A stretch of 64,000 nt of DNA, from IMG/VR virus record IMGVR_UViG_3300042191_000126; one strand, given 5' to 3'. This stretch comes from an uncultured virus (IMG/VR IMGVR_UViG_3300042191_000126). Taxonomy: Duplodnaviria; Heunggongvirae; Uroviricota; Caudoviricetes. The stretch's first letter is position 1. The number at the start of each line of letters is the position of its first letter. The translations under genes and the position numbers were made by a program. Shown piece by piece: positions 14,650 to 46,834 of the stretch. The notes beneath the pieces were generated by a model. The model ran no database searches and was not told where the DNA came from. It saw nothing but the letters and a program-made list of their open reading frames with translations.

Positions 14650-15572
14650 CCGCCCGCTGCGCCTCGTGTGGGCGCCGCCTGCGCCAACCGTCCCCGGACG
14701 GCTACGGGCCCGCATGCCGCCGCGCACAACACCCACAGCCCCGCGGGCCCACACCACCACCCACAGCCCGCCGCACCCGGCCCCAGCCTCGACCACACCC
14801 AGGAGCACCAGTGACCAGCCCGCTCACCGATCAGCAACTCGACGAGATCGCAGCCCGAGCCGAGGGCGTCCGCGAATACATCGACCTCCCCGACGACACC
14901 GACGGCCTCGCCGGTCAGGACGTGCCCGCGCTCATCGCCGAGATCCGCCGCCAGCGCACCCAGAACACCGCCGGCCGGGCTGGTCTCCGTGACCAGGTTC
15001 GCCGCGCAATCTGCGAGGCCGAGGGATTCGGCTGGGACACGGACATGCTGGAGCCCGACGAGTACGGGGAGCATGCCGACGTGGTCCTGGCCGTGCTGCC
15101 CGCACCCGCCGACCGGGCCGCAGTCCTCCGCGAAGCCTGGGACGTGGCCCACGAGGAGGGCAGCCGCCTGGAGGAAGTGGCGGGCATCGAGGCCGCCCGG
15201 GGCGCGCGCTGCGTCGCGCGCCTGCTGCGCCGCATGGCCGACGAGGCGCAGCGGTGCCCGCAGGGCTGCGACATCTCCCGCTGCCCCTGCCTCGCCTGCG
15301 AAGCCGAACAGGCCGACGAGGAGCAGCCCGCCACCGAGGCCGAGACCGACGAGCAGCGCGCGGACCGTGAGGAGACCGAACGCGACCACGCAGCAGGCAA
15401 CCACCAGTATTGCGGCCAGACGTGCGAGGTGGAGTTCCCGACCGAGATGCTCCGCAACGCGATCCTGTACCGCGCCATCCCCGGGTCGAAGGCCATGCTC
15501 GCCGAGCTGGAGCGCCGGGCCGCCGCCGGGGCGCGGCGGAACAAGGCGCAGACGGAGGCCGACCGTGACTGA
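14646..15572 (+). CDS. Mosaic hypothetical protein; likely internal start at GTG 14811
   Basis: AGGAG RBS before 14811; several short modules. Confidence 0.6.
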   Translation: MTARCASCGRRLRQPSPDGYGPACRRAQHPQPRGPTPPPTARRTRPQPRPHPGAPVTSPLTDQQLDEIAARAEGVREYIDLPDDTDGLAGQDVPALIAEIRRQRTQNTAGRAGLRDQVRRAICEAEGFGWDTDMLEPDEYGEHADVVLAVLPAPADRAAVLREAWDVAHEEGSRLEEVAGIEAARGARCVARLLRRMADEAQRCPQGCDISRCPCLACEAEQADEEQPATEAETDEQRADREETERDHAAGNHQYCGQTCEVEFPTEMLRNAILYRAIPGSKAMLAELERRAAAGARRNKAQTEADRD

Positions 15573-31253: not shown

Positions 31254-31583
31254 TCACCCGGCCGACGGCCCGTCGGCCTTCCTCGCGGCCCGCCTCGCGG
31301 CATCCTGCTTTCGGCGCTCCCACCCGCTCAGCCCTTGCCCGATCTGCTGCGCACGGGCAGGCGTGATACTGCCGATGATGTCGGCGATCTCCTTCCAGGA
31401 CTTGCCTTGCGTCCGGAGCGCCTGGACGCGGCGCTGCCGCAACGCCCGCAGCCGCTTCTGGTACTCGGGCCAGACTTTCAGGGCCTCCGAAACTTCAGCA
31501 GTGCACCGCTCGTCGTCCTCGATGGCCTCCAGTGCCTCGATGGCCTCCAAGAGCCGCCTCCTCTCCTCAGACTCGATTGTCAC
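31254..31583 (-). CDS. HTH regulator divergent from the transfer-like operon
   Basis: GKSWKEIADIIGSITPARAQQI. Confidence 0.75.
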   Translation of the reverse strand: MTIESEERRRLLEAIEALEAIEDDERCTAEVSEALKVWPEYQKRLRALRQRRVQALRTQGKSWKEIADIIGSITPARAQQIGQGLSGWERRKQDAARRAARKADGPSAG

Positions 31584-31837
31584 TCCCCGCTCTCCTTCCG
31601 GCTGCGGAGACGGCCACGCACAGAGTAAGTCCCGGGGTTGCGCGAATCAACCCTGGGACTTATTTTGGGTAGGCGCGACCGTGCCCTTTGGTCTCGTGCC
31701 CCAACAAGTCGGCCCCGACGGAGGTGCAACTCCGCCGGGGCCAGCCACCACCTGACGCAACAGGAGATGACAGTGCAGCGTACCGATCACGGCGCCCGCC
31801 GGAACAGCACCCCGGCCCAGCAGGACGGGGGCCGACG

Positions 31838-32026
31838 ATGAGCAGCCTCGGAAACCCCGGCACCGGCCACGTCACACCCATGAGCGACGCCGACCGCATC
31901 CAAGGCCAGATCGACCGCGACGAGATCCGCACCGGCCCCGACGCCGCACGGGAAATCGCCACCCGGATCGAAAACGAGGGCGGCTTCTGGGCCCGCCCCG
32001 GCCACCCCGAGAGGAGCGGACGGTGA
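31838..32026 (+). CDS. Small hypothetical protein
   Basis: Coupled chain of small ORFs. Confidence 0.55.
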   Translation: MSSLGNPGTGHVTPMSDADRIQGQIDRDEIRTGPDAAREIATRIENEGGFWARPGHPERSGR

Positions 32027-32166
32027 GCGGCCTTCCCGAGATCGAGCTCCAGCACCTCCTCGACCCCCTCGACGACCAGTTCGCTGCACTCGCAGCCGGG
32101 CACCCCGACACCCCCACGGAGCCCCGCATGCAGCCCGCCGAACAGGACGTGGAGGTCCAGTCGTGA
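32023..32166 (+). CDS. Small hypothetical protein
   Basis: GAGGAG RBS; manual translation VSGLPEIELQHLLDPLDD. Confidence 0.5.
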   Translation: MSGLPEIELQHLLDPLDDQFAALAAGHPDTPTEPRMQPAEQDVEVQS

Positions 32167-32297
32167 GCGCAGACCAGCAGTCCGGCCCCTGCCACGCCTG
32201 CGGCGGCGCCGGAGGGACCGTCGAGACCGACCAGGACGACGGTATCTTCCGCCAGACCTGGCGCCCGTGCACCGACTGCAACGGCAGCCAGCAGTAA
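32163..32297 (+). CDS. Small DnaJ-type CxxCxGxG zinc-finger protein
   Basis: Manual translation PCHACGGAGG...PCTDCNG. Confidence 0.65.
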   Translation: MSADQQSGPCHACGGAGGTVETDQDDGIFRQTWRPCTDCNGSQQ

Positions 32298-32306
32298 CCC
32301 ACCACA

Positions 32307-32353
32307 GCCCCTGCCACGACCGCGTGCGGCCCACTCGTGATGGGCCAGGGGCA
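32307..32353 (+). ncRNA. tRNA-like mini-structure 1
   Basis: GCCCCTG/CAGGGGC 7-bp stem plus GCCCA-CTCGTGA-TGGGC arm. Confidence 0.5.
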
Positions 32354-32390
32354 CTCCGGCCACACCGGCCGGGCACGAGAGGAGCACCCC

Positions 32391-32573
32391 ATGTCCAACA
32401 GGTACCGAGACGCACGCGACGCCGTGTACGAGGCCCACTGCGACTCCGGCAGCGTCGAGGAGTCCCGGCTGCGGGTGGCCCAGATCAGCGGCGAGTTCAC
32501 GGAGGCCGAGATCAACGCAGCCCACAACGAACTCGCCGACGACGGAGGCGACACCGGCTACTGGGGCCGCTAA
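32391..32573 (+). CDS. Small acidic hypothetical protein
   Basis: GAGGAG RBS. Confidence 0.6.
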   Translation: MSNRYRDARDAVYEAHCDSGSVEESRLRVAQISGEFTEAEINAAHNELADDGGDTGYWGR

Positions 32574-32643
32574 CCCGACAGCCCGGGCGGGATCCGGTCC
32601 CGCCCGGGACACGCACCCACACGACCGACCCGAGAGGACACCC

Positions 32644-32964
32644 GTGCTCACCAGCCAGCAACTCGCCGCGATCGCAGCCCGAGCCGAGGGCGTCCGCGAG
32701 TACGCGTACCTGCCCGATGACGCCGACGGCCTGGCCAGCGAGGACGTCCCGGCCCTCATCGCAGAGATCCGCCGCCTGCAAGCACTCGTCGCCGCAGACG
32801 ACACCACCGGGGCCGTCTGCGGCCAGTGCCGCCGGCCCTTCGACCCCACCGACACCCGCTGGGACGGCCACGCCCAGCACCGCAGCACCGGCTTCTGCCG
32901 CAGCTGTACCGACCACTGCCAATCCAGCGAAATCGCCGACCACCGCTGCAACGTCTGCCGCTGA
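32644..32964 (+). CDS. Cys-rich protein sharing its N-terminal module with 14811
   Basis: QQLAAIAARAEGVREY..LPDD.DGLA..DVPALIAEIRR; CGQC, CRSC..HC, HRCNVC. Confidence 0.7.
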   Translation: MLTSQQLAAIAARAEGVREYAYLPDDADGLASEDVPALIAEIRRLQALVAADDTTGAVCGQCRRPFDPTDTRWDGHAQHRSTGFCRSCTDHCQSSEIADHRCNVCR

Positions 32965-32981
32965 CCCGAAAGGAACCCGAC

Positions 32982-33146
32982 ATGGCCGACGACCACGAGG
33001 ACACCGACTACTACGGCAGCAACGAGGACGTGTTCACCGCATCCGAGCTGTACGAGATGGACCGCGACACGGAATACCGGCTCGACGCCGCCGACGACGC
33101 CCGCAACACCGAAGCCACCGACGCAGCCGAGGCCGAGAACCGCTGA
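32982..33146 (+). CDS. Small acidic hypothetical protein
   Basis: AAAGGA RBS. Confidence 0.55.
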   Translation: MADDHEDTDYYGSNEDVFTASELYEMDRDTEYRLDAADDARNTEATDAAEAENR

Positions 33147-33152
33147 CCGACA

Positions 33153-33212
33153 GCCCCTGCCCCCGACGCTACGGCCGGAGGGCAGCCCGTTCGAGCCGGG
33201 CCAGGGGCACCA
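33153..33212 (+). ncRNA. tRNA-like mini-structure 2 (acceptor stem, T-arm, A-CCA end)
   Basis: GCCCCTG...GCCCG-TTCGAGC-CGGGC-CAGGGGC-A-CCA; 60 nt, too short for a full cloverleaf. Confidence 0.6.
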
Positions 33213-33248
33213 CCCTCAACCCGATCCGACCCGAGAGAGGAACACGCC

Positions 33249-33494
33249 ATGCGACACCACCCCAACCGACTCCTCCAACGCCTCCTCGCCGCCGCCCTCA
33301 TCACCCTCGCCGCCATGCACCCAGGCGCCGTCACCACCATCGCCCGCCTCGCCGCTGGCCTCATCCTCGCCACCGTCAACGGCATCACCCACGCCGCCAC
33401 CGAACAACCCGCCGCAGCCCTCCTCACCGCCGGCGCCCTCTACATCGCACACCAAGCCCGCACCACCCGCCGCCCAGCCCGAACCCGCCACTAA
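33249..33494 (+). CDS. Small hydrophobic membrane protein (Spd-like)
   Basis: Two to three hydrophobic segments; GAGAGG RBS. Confidence 0.65.
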   Translation: MRHHPNRLLQRLLAAALITLAAMHPGAVTTIARLAAGLILATVNGITHAATEQPAAALLTAGALYIAHQARTTRRPARTRH

Positions 33495-33508: not shown

Positions 33509-34390
33509 ATGCCCCAGCCCACCATCCGCCCCGTCACCCGCAACGGCCGCACCCACTACGTCGAAGAACCCGGCAAGCTCCCACCCCTCACCCTCGACGA
33601 AAAGATCATGCGCGCTGTCGGGGTCGCCACCGCACTCGTCGTCACCGGAGCCCTCCTCTGGTCCACCGTCAGCGTCGGCGCCATGCTCGATGCCGTCGCA
33701 CCCACCTGGGCGGCCTACATGATTGCCGCCGTATTCGACCTGGCGTGGATCGTCGCCATGGCAACTGAGTACGTCCTGCGGTTCGAACCCGTCCGCCAGA
33801 AGGTCCCCAAGACCCTCGGCTGGGGAGCCCTACTCGTGTCGATGGCAGCGATCTTTGCGCACGGCGCGCTCCTCAGCTCCCCCTGGATCGGAGCATTCGG
33901 AGCCGTCGTCTCCGCACTCGCCAAAGGACTTTGGTGGCTCACCATGTACGCCACCAGCCGACGCCTGGACCAGGACACACAAGCATGGCTGAACCTCGAA
34001 CTCGGCGAGGTCCACGCCCGCCGAGCCGAGCAGATGGCCCTCGCGCGAGTGGAGAGAGAACGCGTCCGCTACACACTGAACCGCCCAGCGGACACTGTCC
34101 ACACCGTTGTCCGGGACAGTCCGGACAGGGCATCCGGACGTCCGGACGAATATCCGGACGCCGCACCGGACACGTCCGGACGCAAGCCACTGGCCAGCCA
34201 GGACACCCGTCCGGACCCACTCCGGGAGATCGCGGACGACGCCGTCGGCCCGTCCGACCTTGTCCGTGCCCTGTCCGGACACGGCCTCCGCGATAACGAC
34301 CTCGTGAAAACCGCTACACGCCTGCGCCCGGATATGAACGCAGACAGCATCCGCCGTACCGCGAAGCGCATCACCGGCCCCTACCTGTAA
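33509..34390 (+). CDS. SpdB-like multi-TM protein with coiled coil and C-terminal HTH-like end
   Basis: About four TM helices (AAYMIAAVFDLAW), charged helix, Pro/Asp linker, MNADSIRRTAKR. Confidence 0.65.
   Translation: MPQPTIRPVTRNGRTHYVEEPGKLPPLTLDEKIMRAVGVATALVVTGALLWSTVSVGAMLDAVAPTWAAYMIAAVFDLAWIVAMATEYVLRFEPVRQKVPKTLGWGALLVSMAAIFAHGALLSSPWIGAFGAVVSALAKGLWWLTMYATSRRLDQDTQAWLNLELGEVHARRAEQMALARVERERVRYTLNRPADTVHTVVRDSPDRASGRPDEYPDAAPDTSGRKPLASQDTRPDPLREIADDAVGPSDLVRALSGHGLRDNDLVKTATRLRPDMNADSIRRTAKRITGPYL
34120..34280. repeat. TCCGGAC repeat cluster
   Basis: Exact copies at 34120, 34133, 34141, 34153, 34175, 34210, 34274; two more at 34893 and 34903. Confidence 0.8.
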
Positions 34391-34452: not shown

Positions 34453-36219
34453 GTGAAGTTCACCCGCGCCGACCTCGCCACCACTCTCGTCCTGCCCAGC
34501 CTCGTCTCCGCCGCCGCCCTCGCCGCGGACATGCAGTACGGCACCCACGCCGCCGCCGCCGAACTCGTCACTGTCATCGCGTCCGGTTCCCTGTCGTGGA
34601 CGTCGTTCTCCAGGAAGTGGCCCGGCAGTCTCTCCTGGTCCGCCATGGGCGCGGCCGGAATGTTCACGCAGGCGTGGGTAACCACCGCCATCGGAGGCGG
34701 AGCAACGCTCTACGCCTGGCTCGCCGCCGCCGCGGCCACCGGCGCAGCACGGGGCGTATACCGGCACCACACCCGCCACGACCACATGAAACTGAGCATG
34801 GAGGCCGTGAAGTTGCAGACCGCGCTCGTCGGCCAGCAGATCCGACAGCAGCAACTCGCCAAACTCACCGCCCAGGACACTTCCCCAGCGGGTCCGGACC
34901 TGTCCGGACGCACCCCGGAAGAGACCCGGATGAGGACCGTCATCCACACGCTGTTCGCCGCTGAACTGCCCGGATGCACCGTCGAACGCACCCGGACAGG
35001 CTGGACAGCCGTCCTCGACCTGCCCGTAAACCTCGACCGGAACAAACTCCGAACCGCCTGGCCCAAGGTCGCGTCCGGCATGGGCGTGGCTGGGGAATTC
35101 GTCCTCGGCGATGGGGCTCTCACGAACCAGCTCGTGGCCCGGTTCGTCGACGGTGACCCGCTCTCCGCTGTTGTCCCCTACACGCGGCAGACCGCCGGCC
35201 GGTTCACTGACCCGGTCCATCTCGGCATAGACCGGTTCCTGAACCCGGTCACCGTCGAACTGGCCTACGCCCACACCCTGATCGCTGGGTCGTCGAAGTT
35301 CGGCAAGTCCACGATCGGCAGGTCGATCGTCATCCAGCTTGCGGACCGCCCGGACACCGTGGTCTACGGCATGGACCTCAAGCCCGGAGCGCCCGAGATG
35401 ACCCCGCTCAGGCCGATCCTTCAAGACGTCGCCGAGACCGCCGAGCAGGCCCACACGATGCTGGACTGGCTGAAGGCCGAGCTCACCGAACGCGGCAACA
35501 TCCTCGCCAAAGCAGGGGACCAGGAGTGGGACCCCGCCAAACACGGCCGGCCCGCACTGTGGGTGGTCATCGATGAGCTCGCCGAACTGGTGAGGCAGGC
35601 CGACGTCGGCGAGTGGAAGAAGGACCCGGCGTCGAAGAAGATGGAGTCCCTGCTCGCGCTGGCGAGGTTCGCGGCAATGCAGTTCATCGCCATGACGCAG
35701 CAGCCCTCCCGGAAGGTTTTCGGCGGGACAACGGACGCCCGTGGGAACTACTCGGTGCGCCTGTCCACACGCATGGCTGACCGGGATCACCGCCGGTTCG
35801 TGTTCGGCACCACCCCAGGCTGGGAGCCCGGCGACCTGGACGCCCCGGGGAAGTTCTTGCTCCAGTCGCCGGATCACCAGCAGCCGCAGCCGTACAAGGG
35901 CATGTGGCTGACGAAGGACGAGTTCACTGCCGAGGTCGCCCGGATCGGCCGTGAGACGGCGAAGGCCCCGGTGGGGAAGCGGCTGGTGCTGCCTGTGCCG
36001 GGTGGGACGAACCAGGAGAAGGTGCGGGCAGCGCTGCTCAAGTACGGGAACATGACCCGCCGTGAACTGGAGGCCGCGACCGAACTGGAGGAACGGCAGG
36101 TACTGAAGGCGATAGAAGGCCTGAAGCCGGAGGCTGAGCGCACCGACGCTGGAACGTGGCGATTGGTGCCTGTGGACGCGTGGGAGGCGCAGGCGGTGTC
36201 TGTCTCTACAGACCGGTGA
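34453..36219 (+). CDS. FtsK/SpoIIIE-family DNA translocase, TraB-like
   Basis: N-terminal TMs; Walker A IAGSSKFGKST, GMDLK, Walker B VVIDELAEL, MTQQP; C-terminal wHTH MTRRELEAATEL. Confidence 0.88.
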   Translation: MKFTRADLATTLVLPSLVSAAALAADMQYGTHAAAAELVTVIASGSLSWTSFSRKWPGSLSWSAMGAAGMFTQAWVTTAIGGGATLYAWLAAAAATGAARGVYRHHTRHDHMKLSMEAVKLQTALVGQQIRQQQLAKLTAQDTSPAGPDLSGRTPEETRMRTVIHTLFAAELPGCTVERTRTGWTAVLDLPVNLDRNKLRTAWPKVASGMGVAGEFVLGDGALTNQLVARFVDGDPLSAVVPYTRQTAGRFTDPVHLGIDRFLNPVTVELAYAHTLIAGSSKFGKSTIGRSIVIQLADRPDTVVYGMDLKPGAPEMTPLRPILQDVAETAEQAHTMLDWLKAELTERGNILAKAGDQEWDPAKHGRPALWVVIDELAELVRQADVGEWKKDPASKKMESLLALARFAAMQFIAMTQQPSRKVFGGTTDARGNYSVRLSTRMADRDHRRFVFGTTPGWEPGDLDAPGKFLLQSPDHQQPQPYKGMWLTKDEFTAEVARIGRETAKAPVGKRLVLPVPGGTNQEKVRAALLKYGNMTRRELEAATELEERQVLKAIEGLKPEAERTDAGTWRLVPVDAWEAQAVSVSTDR

Positions 36220-36571: not shown

Positions 36572-37102
36572 GTGGCCAACCCCGGCTACAACCCCAACCA
36601 GGATGCCCGCGACGGCTTCGGCCGCTACGCCCGCACCCTCGACACCGCCCAGCGCGACGCCCAGGCCGCCCGCCTCGCCACCCAAGGCCGCACCTACCAG
36701 CAGATCGCCGACGAGCTCGGCATCAGCAACAAAGGCGACGCGTGGCGCGCCGTGCAACGCGCCCGTCAGGCCGCTATCCAGCCCGCCGGCGAGGAGCTCA
36801 TCGCCACCGAGGCCGCCGAGCTCGACACCCTCTATGCCGAGGTCATGGAGATCCTGGCCCGCGACCACGTGATGGTCTCCCACGGCCGGATCGTGTACGG
36901 CGACGACGGGGAACCGCTCCTCGACTACGGGCCCAAACTGCAGGCGATAGACCGCGCGGTGAAAATCCGCGAGTCCTACCGGAAACTACGCGGCGTCGAC
37001 GCGCCGTCCCGCGTCTCTGTGGACGCCGAGCGGCTCGGCACCGAGATCGCCGACCTCCTCAGCTCTCTCGGAGGCAGCAGTGACGACGGCCCCGGAGACT
37101 GA
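36572..37102 (+). CDS. Terminase small subunit (HTH)
   Basis: GRTYQQIADELGIS; directly upstream of large subunit; GGGAGG RBS. Confidence 0.8.
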   Translation: MANPGYNPNQDARDGFGRYARTLDTAQRDAQAARLATQGRTYQQIADELGISNKGDAWRAVQRARQAAIQPAGEELIATEAAELDTLYAEVMEILARDHVMVSHGRIVYGDDGEPLLDYGPKLQAIDRAVKIRESYRKLRGVDAPSRVSVDAERLGTEIADLLSSLGGSSDDGPGD

Positions 37103-39665
37103 GCGGATCCGCCAGCAGATCGAGCAGCTGGTCCGCGCCGGTGACGCTGCGCGGTTGCGGGACATCCGCGACCAACTGAAGTCGGCTGTTGATCGCAGGA
37201 ACCTCGGCGAGCGGTCCGCGCGCTACTCCGGTGACCCGGTGCGGTGGGTACGGGAACGCCTCCGCCAGGTGGTGTGGTCGAAGCAGGGCGAGATCATGCG
37301 CAGCGTGCGGGACCACCGCCGCACTGCGGTAAGATCTGGGCATGGAGTCGGTAAGGCATTGAGCCTCAACACAGACCTGCCCACCCCAACGGGGTGGACC
37401 ACCATGGCCGAGGTCGAGCCGGGCGACATGCTCCTCGACGAACACGGACGGCCCGTCAAGGTGCTCGCCGTGTCCCCTGTTCACCAGCGAGACACTTTCG
37501 AGGTCGTCTTCGATGACGGCTCAGTGGTCGTGGCATCCGATGATCACAAGTGGCAAGTGCTGGACTTCTACGCCCGCAAGAGGGCACGCAATCTCCGCAG
37601 CTACTACGGCGATGCCGTGCCTACCGACTGGAGAGACGCGTGGGCCCTTTCGGAGACTCGCACCACCCGTGAGCTCGCGGAATCGCTTCGCACCACGGCC
37701 GGCACCAAGGGCGGCCAGCTCCGGTGGGCTGTCCCGACCACCAAGCCCCTCGTCGGCGAGCCCTGCGAACTCCCCGTTCCGCCATACACATTGGGCGCAT
37801 GGCTTGGTGATGGCGAGACAGCGGAAGCAAGGATCACCGTGGCGCACGAAGACGCGCCGCACCTGCTCGCCCAGTTCTCAGCTGAGGGCGTTCAGTTCCG
37901 TGAGATTCCGTCACGACGCCGTGAGACCACGACGGCCTACGCAATGATCAACGGGACCAGAGTCGCTCTTCGGAAGATGGGAGTGCTGGGCAACAAGCAC
38001 GTCCCAGCGCAGTACTTGCGCGCCGACGAGGAAACCCGGATGGCGCTGCTCGCGGGGATCATGGACACCGACGGGTTCATCCAATCCAACGGGTCTGTGG
38101 CCCAACTCGACATCACCTGCAAGCCGATCGCCGACGCCGTCGAGGAACTGGCGGCGTCCTTCGGGTGGAAGGTGCGTCGGGCCACCAAGCGTGCCACGTA
38201 CTACGGCAAGGACTGCGGGATCGTTTACCGGGTCTCATTCCGCCCGGACCTTCAGGTCTTCCGGCTACCGCGCAAGGCCGCCAAGCTCAGCTTGGACGGC
38301 ACCGCGCAGCGATCCCGGCATACGATGCGGACCATCGTGGACGTCCGGCCAGTGGCACCGGTGCCAGTCAAATGCGTCGCGGTGGACTCGCTAACGTCGC
38401 TGTACCTCGCCGGGCGGGGATTCATCCCCACTCACAACAGCCACGTCGCGTCCTTGGTTGCATGCTGGTGGCTCGACACCCACCCGCCCGGCGAGGCCTT
38501 CGTCGTCACCACCGCACCCACCTACTCCCAGGTGCGGGCGATTCTGTGGCGGTACATCCGCCGCAACCACAAAGCCGGGCAACTTGCCGGCCGGGTCAAT
38601 CAGACCGAGTGGCACATCGACGATGAGATGGTCGCGTTCGGCCGCAAGCCGGCGGACCACGACGAGTCCGCGTTCCAGGGCATCCACGCCCGGTACGTGC
38701 TGGTCATCCTCGACGAGGCATGCGGCATCCCCGAACAACTGTGGGTCGCAGCCGACGCGCTGACGACCAACGCCGACTGCCGGCTGCTCGCTATCGGCAA
38801 TCCGGATTCGCCCGCGAGCCACTTCAGACGGGTCTGCCAGCCCGGTTCCGGCTGGCACGTCATGGGTATCAGCGCGTTCGACTCGCCGAACCTCACGGGC
38901 GAGGACGTACCGGACAAGGTCGCGCTCGCCCTGGTTGGCGCCGAGTGGGTCGAGGAGAAGCGCCGCGAGTGGGGCGAGGACAATCCGCTCTACCGCAGCA
39001 AGGTCCTGGGGGAGTTCTCCGCTGACTCGCCGAATCAGGTCGTGCGCCAGTCCGACATCTCGGCGTGCCGGATCCGGTCCGATACCCGCCCTGCGCCCGA
39101 TGATTTGCTTCCCGTCGAGCTCGGTGTGGATGTCGGTGGCGGCGGGGACGAGACCGTCATTCGTGAGCGGCGCGGTGTGCGTGCCGGGCGTGAGTGGCGG
39201 GCGCACACGGACCGGCCGGAGAAGATCGCACCGATGGTTCTTGCGGCGATCCGGGAGACCGGCGCGACCGCGGTGAAGGTGGACTCGATCGGCGTCGGGT
39301 TCGGTGTGATCGGCGAGCTCCGCAACGCCGCAGCCCGCGGCGAACACACGGCGCATATCCGCGGCGTGAACGTCGGCGAGAAGGCCAGCCGCCCGGACAA
39401 GTTCGTCAACCTCCGCGCCGAGATCTGGTGGGAGATCGGCCGCGGCCTGTCCGAACGCCGCGGCTGGGACCTCTCCAGCATGGACAACGCGGACACCACC
39501 ATCGCGCAGCTCCTGGAGCCGCGGTGGGACGCCGACCCGGCCGGCCGGATCCGGGTGGAGAAGAAAGACGAAGTGATCAAGCGGCTCGGCAGAAGTCCGG
39601 ACAATGCGGACGCCTTGCTCTTGGCCTACTACAGCGCTGGCCGCACCCGGGTCCGCTGGCTCTAA
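37080..39665 (+). CDS. terL: Terminase large subunit containing an intein
   Basis: SGHGVGK|S Walker A, ILDEACG, IGNP, LGVDVGGGG, SPDNADAL. Confidence 0.93.
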   Translation: MTTAPETERIRQQIEQLVRAGDAARLRDIRDQLKSAVDRRNLGERSARYSGDPVRWVRERLRQVVWSKQGEIMRSVRDHRRTAVRSGHGVGKALSLNTDLPTPTGWTTMAEVEPGDMLLDEHGRPVKVLAVSPVHQRDTFEVVFDDGSVVVASDDHKWQVLDFYARKRARNLRSYYGDAVPTDWRDAWALSETRTTRELAESLRTTAGTKGGQLRWAVPTTKPLVGEPCELPVPPYTLGAWLGDGETAEARITVAHEDAPHLLAQFSAEGVQFREIPSRRRETTTAYAMINGTRVALRKMGVLGNKHVPAQYLRADEETRMALLAGIMDTDGFIQSNGSVAQLDITCKPIADAVEELAASFGWKVRRATKRATYYGKDCGIVYRVSFRPDLQVFRLPRKAAKLSLDGTAQRSRHTMRTIVDVRPVAPVPVKCVAVDSLTSLYLAGRGFIPTHNSHVASLVACWWLDTHPPGEAFVVTTAPTYSQVRAILWRYIRRNHKAGQLAGRVNQTEWHIDDEMVAFGRKPADHDESAFQGIHARYVLVILDEACGIPEQLWVAADALTTNADCRLLAIGNPDSPASHFRRVCQPGSGWHVMGISAFDSPNLTGEDVPDKVALALVGAEWVEEKRREWGEDNPLYRSKVLGEFSADSPNQVVRQSDISACRIRSDTRPAPDDLLPVELGVDVGGGGDETVIRERRGVRAGREWRAHTDRPEKIAPMVLAAIRETGATAVKVDSIGVGFGVIGELRNAAARGEHTAHIRGVNVGEKASRPDKFVNLRAEIWWEIGRGLSERRGWDLSSMDNADTTIAQLLEPRWDADPAGRIRVEKKDEVIKRLGRSPDNADALLLAYYSAGRTRVRWL
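37356..38438 (+). mobile_element. Class 3 intein with LAGLIDADG homing endonuclease (361 aa)
   Basis: Starts ALSLNTDLPTPTGW, ends PTHN/S; HKW, VKCVAV; LGAWLGDG and LAGIMDTDG. Confidence 0.9.
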
Positions 39666-45912: not shown

Positions 45913-46374
45913 ATGTCCGTTCTCATCCACGCGGACCAGCTCCGCCTTATCAACCTCGGCCAGCGGGCGTCGAAGAGCACCGGCACGCTGGCTGCGACGA
46001 CCGTCGCGCTGTTCACTGTGGCGGGTGGCCGGGTCGGCATCACCGCGATCTACGGTTTCGTGGGCACCGCCATCACGGTGGCGAACTCCTACAAGCTGGT
46101 GTCGAACCCAACGACCGGCACGACCATGGACCTGTGCACCGCAACCGATCTGGGGACGAACGACACCCCGGCCGGGGCCGTGCTGTCCATGACCAGTCCG
46201 GCCGCGGCGATCACCGGCGGGTCTACCACCACCGTGTCGACGTCGTCCCTGACGGGCATCGTGCCGATCCCGGTGGGCCAGATCGAGTCGGTGTCGGCCG
46301 GTACGGACGGCGAGATCACCTGGGTAGCGTTCTGGATTCCCCTCGATGACGGCGCGACGCTAGCGGCGGCGTAG
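45913..46374 (+). CDS. Virion structural protein, paralog A
   Basis: Tandem paralog of the next gene. Confidence 0.75.
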   Translation: MSVLIHADQLRLINLGQRASKSTGTLAATTVALFTVAGGRVGITAIYGFVGTAITVANSYKLVSNPTTGTTMDLCTATDLGTNDTPAGAVLSMTSPAAAITGGSTTTVSTSSLTGIVPIPVGQIESVSAGTDGEITWVAFWIPLDDGATLAAA

Positions 46375-46378
46375 CCAG

Positions 46379-46834
46379 ATGAGCACCCTCATTCAGGGCT
46401 CTGAGCTGCGGGCCCTCAATTTCGGGCAGCGGGCGTCGAAGTCGACGGGCACGCTCGCTGCCACCACGGTGGCGCTGTTCACGGTGGCCGGGGGCCGGGT
46501 CGCGGTCACTTCCGTGTACGGCCTGGTTGGCACGGCGATCACCGTCGCCAACTCGTACAAGCTGCAGCACAACCCCACCACGGGAACCACCGTGGACCTG
46601 TGCGCAGCGACCGACATCGGCACCACCGACACCCCCGCCGGAGACCTCCTCAGTTTCACCGGCGAGGTCATCGGATCCAACCTCTCCCGCGGCGGGGCGG
46701 TAGAGACACTCCGCGCCCCGATCGTCCTCACCGCAGGGCAGATCGAATCCGTCTCCGCCGGCACCGACGGGGAGATCACCTGGGTCGTGACCTGGGTACC
46801 GCTCGACGACGGAGCATCCATGGAGGCTGCCTGA
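46379..46834 (+). CDS. Virion structural protein, paralog B
   Basis: Shares GQRASKSTGTLAATTVALFTVAGGRV and GQIESVSAGTDGEITWV. Confidence 0.75.
   Translation: MSTLIQGSELRALNFGQRASKSTGTLAATTVALFTVAGGRVAVTSVYGLVGTAITVANSYKLQHNPTTGTTVDLCAATDIGTTDTPAGDLLSFTGEVIGSNLSRGGAVETLRAPIVLTAGQIESVSAGTDGEITWVVTWVPLDDGASMEAA

Follow-up and report, generated by a model that had tools for sequence, protein, structure and literature searches.

The phage locus and its transfer operon

The window analyzed here, a stretch of 64,000 nucleotides from an uncultured virus, reads as a temperate, Streptomyces-type tailed phage, to judge by its DnaB helicase, terminase, portal and capsid genes and by a gene that it has in common with Streptomyces phage VWB. 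Within it, a rightward run of small genes starting at 31838 leads to a membrane-type gene (from 33509) and then to an FtsK/TraB-like gene (from 34453), which sits just upstream of the packaging genes. The gene order of plasmid pCQ4, i.e. small genes, traA, traB and terminase, matches this arrangement.

At the head of the operon lies a divergent gene of 109 aa without a family (31254..31583, minus strand), and between this gene and the operon we find a long inverted repeat (31625-31662), a candidate operator or promoter. The following genes are all on the plus strand: a 44-aa CxxC mini-gene (32163..32297) with a weak DnaJ zinc-finger match below the cut-off; a 60-aa gene without a family (32391..32573); a 106-aa gene (32644..32964); an acidic 54-aa gene (32982..33146), a homolog of VWB gp27; a hydrophobic 81-aa gene without a family match (33249..33494); the 293-aa membrane-type protein (33509..34390), which has relatives in 43 of 401 Streptomyces genomes; and the FtsK/SpoIIIE, TraB-like DNA translocase (34453..36219), matched by PF01580, phrog_1358 and, weakly and far below the cut-off, NF041214. 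We take the 33249 gene to be of the Spd type (SpdA) and the 33509 gene to be SpdB-like, names that the profile libraries did not return. In a blastn search of the operon, VWB gp27 was the sole phage match, next to one weak plasmid match. The term 'transfer operon', used in the initial annotation, is justified for the FtsK/TraB-like gene (PF01580); the genes flanking the elements described below have no family.

Several other features of the region deserve mention. The 5' part of the 106-aa gene belongs to an internal duplication of the window (14822-14955 and 32646-32779, 84% identity), and a second duplication joins 45950-46370 and 46416-46830 (75% identity). The 3' part of the 33509 gene contains short CCGGAC/GGACA repeats (34085-34185), which resemble, and may be, a TraB-loading (clt-type) array. 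Lastly, the gene for the terminase large subunit (37080..39665, plus strand) directly follows the transfer operon, as it does in pCQ4, and its weak LAGLIDADG/homing-endonuclease matches at residues 312-387 suggest an intein.

Two mini-tRNA folds in the operon spacers

Two spacers of this operon hold a fold in which an acceptor stem is stacked on a T-arm of tRNA dimensions. As the initial annotation had reported, and as the sequence and a descriptor scan confirm, both lie just after a stop codon and combine a 7-bp stem with a 5-bp stem and a 7-nt loop. Element 1 (32307..32354, plus strand) starts 9 nt past the TAA codon of the CxxC mini-gene (32297) and ends 38 nt ahead of the start of the 60-aa gene. 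Its core (32307-32352) is built from the 7-bp acceptor (32307-32313/32346-32352), a 15-nt middle with a 4-bp hairpin, and a 5-bp T-stem (32329-32345) with the non-canonical loop CTCGTGA; the trailer behind 32352 reads A-C-T-C, with A73 at 32353 and C74 at 32354. Element 2 (33153..33212, plus strand) starts 6 nt past the TGA codon of the acidic gene (33146) and ends 40 nt ahead of the start of the hydrophobic gene. Its core (33153-33208) has the same 7-bp acceptor stem, starting at 33153, a 25-nt middle that folds into one small hairpin, and the canonical T-loop TTCGAGC closed by G53-C61; its trailer is A-C-C-A (A73-CCA, 33209-33212). Element 1 closes its loop with an A-T pair and element 2 with a G-C pair, the compensated change that had been noticed before; the small hairpins in the middles had not been described in the initial annotation.

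Both middles are too short for a D plus an anticodon arm, also in agreement with the initial annotation, and we rejected the elements as tRNA genes (RF00005) given the absence of these arms; ARAGORN found no tRNA gene in the window and Rfam gave no match. Apart from the elements, folding predicts a 7-bp hairpin right after C74 of element 1 and ahead of the ribosome-binding site (32355..32373, plus strand), and no such hairpin follows the element 1 homolog in the metagenome locus L094, described below. The spacer between both elements contains a plain 12-bp hairpin without a T-loop (32582..32608, plus strand), 8 nt past a stop codon, which scores weakly (20.7 bits) with the covariance model of the elements.

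Elements 1 and 2 are the only Watson-Crick folds of the 7+5/7 type that the descriptor scan finds in the window. This geometry alone is not rare: the real window has two matches where 20 shuffles average 1.0, and its appearance about once per shuffled window speaks for chance geometry in GC-rich spacers. When an N-TCG loop is demanded, the window still has its two matches, the average over 300 shuffles drops to 0.03 and no shuffle holds two, though this constraint, which equals the canonical U55-C56-G57, was picked after the elements had been seen. The folding z-scores are modest (-1.6 to -2.1). RNAfold favors a slightly shifted register for element 1, which with C54/U58 has no 54-58 T-loop pair; the stems of element 2 reach a pair probability of only about 0.2 with flanks of 20-60 nt, where rival folds compete; and both element folds disappear from the prediction with 100-nt flanks.

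We also compared the elements with catalogued RNAs and signals. An Rfam scan of the window returned no family and, at a relaxed E-value, sub-threshold miRNA/snoRNA noise away from the elements. Likewise, neither the window nor 15 fetched loci match an Rfam family, including C4 antisense RNA. The mascRNA/menRNA model RF01684 does not match the window's elements, and a sub-threshold 25-bit match to it in locus L095 falls on a longer tRNA-like neighbor of an element. No terminator-like site was detected at either element, the trailers being A/C-rich and free of a U-tract, which is a weak test in Streptomyces, where terminators often lack U-tracts. We found no literature on such a bacterial element family in searches largely confined to literature outside subscription journals. 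A motif search of the supplements to four Streptomyces end-mapping papers (PMC8780764, PMC12167820, PMC8269248, PMC8914203) returned no element, although their tables may lack sequences and their strains the element; nor was one seen among the places inspected in the supplement of PMC12207403, whose table contains intrinsic terminators only.

Homologs in phages, plasmids and Streptomyces genomes

A first viral scan with the window's exact stems and a free loop returned a single locus (L001), which has an A-TCGA loop directly after a stop codon. A second scan, in which acceptor pairs 6 and 7 as well as the trailer were left free, returned 26 loci, among them L084 as a repeat of L001 and seven from one related contig series. 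The L001 phage contig carries four tRNA-like folds between early genes (G001:C1 6342-8170), with middles of 92, 48, 16 and 57 nt; near 19.5-23 kb, it also has apparent Que-pathway genes, whose names are guesses from N-terminal sequence. In a series of phage contigs related to one another (L069, L072, L076, L082, L086, L087 and L093), two other fold subtypes, which differ in stems and middles, occur two to three times per 4 kb.

A metagenome scan yielded three matches, one of which, L094, has homologs of both window elements. Compared with the window, its element 1 homolog has compensated changes at two pairs of the T-stem and at one pair of the middle, and carries U54/C58; its element 2 homolog is near-identical, but ends in A-C-G-C where the window has A-CCA. 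When isolated phages were searched by blastn with two elements of the family, one element gave a single partial match and the other none. Contigs of four DNA runs include relatives, for which 40 of 155 differences are listed; no conservation claim rests on them.

A covariance model built from 33 of the scan sequences produced at least 30 short matches, with E-values up to 6.4e-5, in at least 22 of the 150 Streptomyces genomes scanned; these are minimum figures, given that 36 candidates were scored per genome. Weaker matches are mostly 82 nt long, and all eight such loci that we checked are host tRNA-Arg(UCU). The 22 Streptomyces loci that we fetched comprise 27 distinct elements, none of which had been used in model building. 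In a phylum-wide sample of 150 genomes, again with 36 candidates scored per genome, model R1 returned five matches, all of full tRNA length and none short.

In annotated plasmids, the elements lie between co-oriented genes of GntR-headed transfer operons. Plasmid NZ_CP108706.1 has them in three consecutive spacers ahead of traA-traB, while pFP11, pCQ4, NZ_CP108279.1 and pSTS1 have one each; none was found in pSG5, in the first 45 kb of ZL12 or in the first 13 kb of pSV2. Among 35 ORFs scanned near Streptomyces elements are genes for DUF2637, DUF6251, DUF6303, PycTM, NUDIX, RapZ_C and integrase domains, which we take to be of the kind found in integrative conjugative elements. Measured against ORFs called by a script, no element (0 of 38 and 0 of 27 in two sets) lies inside a same-strand ORF. 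They are mostly located 5-60 nt past a stop codon, with no nearby ORF called in several loci, and mostly 27-55 or 105-130 nt ahead of the next start.

Homologous elements are flanked by different genes, and the trailer of the L094 element 1 homolog (L094 1376-1421) equals that of window element 2 (33209-33233), a swap that points to past exchange at or near the elements and a shuffling of small genes. Both observations would suit a feature acting at the DNA level, such as a cassette boundary, a recombination site for small-gene shuffling or an attachment-site relic. We nevertheless hold this to be highly improbable: recombination between short shared repeats accounts for the swap as a side effect, the elements point the same way as the genes wherever ORFs were called on their flanks, the T-loop and C74 are signatures of an RNA, and the two acceptor strands are both retained with covariation, something that an attachment-site relic does not need.

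Covariation and conserved positions

The initial annotation had made its reading depend in part on covariation in homologs, and this is what we observe: Streptomyces chromosomes, plasmids and phage contigs contain homologs whose stems covary. In the viral set, the acceptor pairs 6 and 7 that had been left free are both Watson-Crick in 25 of 26 loci, and R73-C74 is present in 24 of 26, where the trailer had likewise been free. Pair 53-61 is Watson-Crick in 26/26 loci, and position 54 is A or T in all of them. As the matches are related to each other, such counts make the evidence look more independent than it is. As a control, we searched GTDB genomes with the window's exact stems and a free loop; the 27 matches look chance-like, with pair 53-61 in nine, N-TCG in one and R-C in four.

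In the 27 Streptomyces elements, 321 of 324 stem cells pair (314 Watson-Crick, seven G-U). A separate set of pair counts, from rows picked for pairing, is circular and was kept out of the main evidence. On the sense strand, G-U combinations outnumber A-C combinations by 15 to 3. The 26 elements of the main subtype have a 3-bp middle hairpin, which was not modelled as structure and in which 77 of 78 cells pair, with compensatory types; none of 5000 permutations reached this pairing, in a test that ignores kinship. The loop of this hairpin, G-Y-G-A-N, shows more conservation than a cut site would call for.

A broader set of 65 distinct short elements, obtained from 72 rows by removing seven longer or duplicate ones, has middles of 8-28 nt and a nearly invariant core: G+1 in 65, U55 in 64, C56 in 65, G57 in 64 and A58 in 53 elements, followed by a purine at 73 in 64 and C74 in 63. 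As most of these rows were chosen for the loop core, the trailer and the free pairs alone are independent evidence. A canonical T-loop (U54/A54-A58, U55, C56) is found in element 2 and most of the family, but not in element 1 and its L094 homolog. The encoded CCA, which had been highlighted in element 2, does not hold up as a key feature, occurring in six of the 65; it is C74 alone that is a family trait.

Taken together, the element family is a real, conserved RNA module that is absent from Rfam. Chance geometry, which we rejected on the grounds of the family-wide covariation, the controls and the compensatory changes in the L094 element 1 homolog, has a probability close to nil.

Host tRNA trailers and a probable tRNA origin

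With host tRNA genes (RF00005), the elements share the 7-bp acceptor, the 5-bp T-stem, the 7-nt loop, G+1 and C74 without the full CCA. They differ from them in the stretch that separates the stems (8-28 nt, against about 41), in lacking the D and anticodon arms, and in A54, which is found in 26 of 27 elements of the main Streptomyces subtype and in none of 37 host tRNA genes. These 37 genes, read from 74 matches in the Streptomyces genome G133 (L135-L164; six more in a separate cluster are not counted), encode C74 in 37 of 37 cases and CCA in 11. The presence of C74 without the full CCA on both sides implies that the elements copy the pre-tRNA trailer rather than the mature CCA end, and an encoded C74 without the full CCA may be a general streptomycete rule for tRNA 3' maturation. 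According to an S. coelicolor study (PMC4681348), 53 of 65 tRNA genes in this species lack CCA, and most of the CCA-encoding tRNAs are cut between the two Cs, which would fit a 3' cut after C74 of the elements.

The fold itself probably derives from tRNA genes that lost their D and anticodon arms. Two observations suggest such an origin: middle lengths vary widely in the phage contigs, and a tRNA-Thr gene has the window's exact acceptor stem. This gene is located in a dense cluster of eight tRNA genes in G133 (L163, G133:C1 5812400-5813770).

A54 and the conserved middle loop, which distinguish the main subtype from host tRNAs, could also speak for a binding site of an element-encoded or host protein, or for a transcription signal (antitermination or pausing) unrelated to tRNA nucleases. 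This appears very unlikely to us: we found no neighbor gene common to all element loci, and the trailer resembles that of host pre-tRNA genes and thereby points to the host tRNA machinery.

Relation to known tRNA-like processing signals

tRNA-like cutting signals have been described in mitochondria, haloarchaea and mammalian lncRNAs, and in bacteria only a few, irregular mRNAs serve as substrates of RNase P. The t-elements of haloarchaea, tRNA-like signals of a prokaryote at which RNase P and tRNase Z cut, resemble the elements by description. Like the elements, the plant mitochondrial t-elements of Forner et al. (2007; PMC1920247) are non-canonical tRNA-like folds with an intact T-arm near mRNA ends, and it was proposed there that they act in cis as signals to RNase P and RNase Z. 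They belong, however, to an organelle, are in most cases longer (cox1: 74 nt) and have ends that were mapped, whereas the present family is bacterial, 46-60 nt long, repeated between genes of mobile operons and known from sequence alone. Another small tRNA mimic within a long transcript is MALAT1 mascRNA/MEN-beta menRNA (RF01684), which is cut by RNase P and RNase Z, as described in PMC4919922; it lies at the 3' ends of mammalian lncRNAs, and the window elements in operon spacers.

[quoted passage not shown] RNAs of phages and polycistronic mRNAs are thereby represented, as in the case of the elements. Phage C4 RNA and 4.5S are functional RNAs with an extended helix and without a T-loop, and hisCD is one hairpin, whereas the window family has a T-loop module that is reused across many spacers.

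Proposed function

We propose that the elements act as t-elements of bacteria and punctuate the operon mRNA, with RNase P cutting them and a further cut perhaps falling on their 3' side, a reading to which we assign a probability of about 0.6. In other words, they probably mark where the host's tRNA-trimming enzymes cut a long message. What is conserved across the family is the 12-bp acceptor/T-stem stack, the T-loop core, G+1, R73-C74 and an intergenic site on the sense strand. The determinants of RNase P given in PMC10731613 and PMC4919913 are the 12-bp stack, the T-loop and a 3' RCC, and according to PMC1874595, C74 pairs with the RNase P RNA (L15 loop) and CCA blocks B. subtilis RNase Z. 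Less typically, 62 of the 65 elements have A or C at N-1, where RNase P, according to PMC10731613, favors U. The earlier suggestion that the elements are processing signals is partly supported: the features kept by the family (12-bp stack, T-loop, G+1, R73-C74) are ones that RNase P reads, and the encoded CCA is not among them.

To judge by the co-oriented ORFs and the plasmid annotation, the element-bearing genes would be co-transcribed on one mRNA. Host RNase P would bind the 12-bp stack and cut 5' of G+1, i.e. at 32307 and 33153, a few nucleotides past the upstream stop codon. The upstream message would then lose its 3' protection, and the downstream message would gain a base-paired 5' end with a leader of about 30-55 nt ahead of its start. 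A second cut near C74 by a host tRNA 3'-processing nuclease may release a mini-tRNA of 47-60 nt as a by-product. As a likely result, the small genes on the one hand and the tra/spd genes on the other would each have a half-life and stoichiometry of their own.

Such a signal is dispensable or replaceable, given that elements are sparse in close relatives and that equivalent spacers carry plain hairpins. Among the four close relatives whose upstream DNA extends far enough (L003, L064, L065 and L066), one carries an element, 30 loci of distant relatives of the 33509 gene have none within 1.5 kb, and in VWB a plain hairpin follows the gp27 homolog. As a side observation made without a control, transfer-operon spacers free of mini-tRNAs often hold plain 12-14-bp hairpins a few nucleotides past the stop codon (window 32582-32608; L002 3672; L003 2880; L064-L066; L128-L134), a length that approximates that of the acceptor/T stack. 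These hairpins in the relatives' equivalent spacers and in the window's middle spacer, together with the degenerate T-loop of element 1, would be expected if the fold were an uncut structural barrier that only stabilizes or insulates the message. Its tRNA traits would then be inherited from a tRNA ancestor, in line with the G133 tRNA-Thr that has the window's exact acceptor and with host tRNA-Arg(UCU), which scores about 40 bits with the element model. A barrier, however, needs neither a fixed 7+5 length nor an invariant C56 nor an unpaired R73-C74, all of which are kept while the stems covary, and we regard it as unlikely.

It is also conceivable that the mini-tRNA, once cut out on both sides and completed with CCA, is itself the relevant product, which would accumulate and work in trans by luring away enzymes or toxins directed at the acceptor ends or elbows of tRNAs. 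As a self-contained unit with a very high GC content, the fold is equipped with a host trailer from which CCA could be completed, and its middle loop G-Y-G-A-N is conserved more than a cut site requires; in addition, PMC1920247 reports that plant t-elements are released and gain C, CC or CA tails. On the other hand, an operon may have several copies, each after a gene, with up to three spacers in a row holding one apiece, which suits a cis signal better than a decoy. Without an anticodon arm, the elements cannot decoy anticodon nucleases, and an unsystematic look revealed no promoter or cassette expressing an element alone. We think a role as decoy quite improbable. A wider version, in which mobile mini-tRNAs let host enzymes cut the transfer mRNA gene by gene and the released, CCA-completed copies act in trans, e.g. 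as decoys that would shield host tRNA ends from defence enzymes during the spread of the element, strikes us as rather unlikely.

Implications

If the elements are indeed t-elements that punctuate the operon mRNA, RNase P of bacteria would have a defined class of mRNAs as natural substrates, and TraB-type conjugation would have an added post-transcriptional layer of control. One copy lies on plasmid pSTS1 (NZ_CP029157.1) of S. tsukubensis NRRL18488, a species with public libraries of 5' ends (dRNA-seq, SRP103795) and 3' ends (Term-seq, PRJEB36379), whose reads PMC7738537 placed on the chromosome only. The module could further serve Streptomyces engineering as a compact mRNA-processing part. 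Finally, the C74 that all 37 host tRNA genes encode and that the elements copy bears on the maturation of tRNA 3' ends in streptomycetes.
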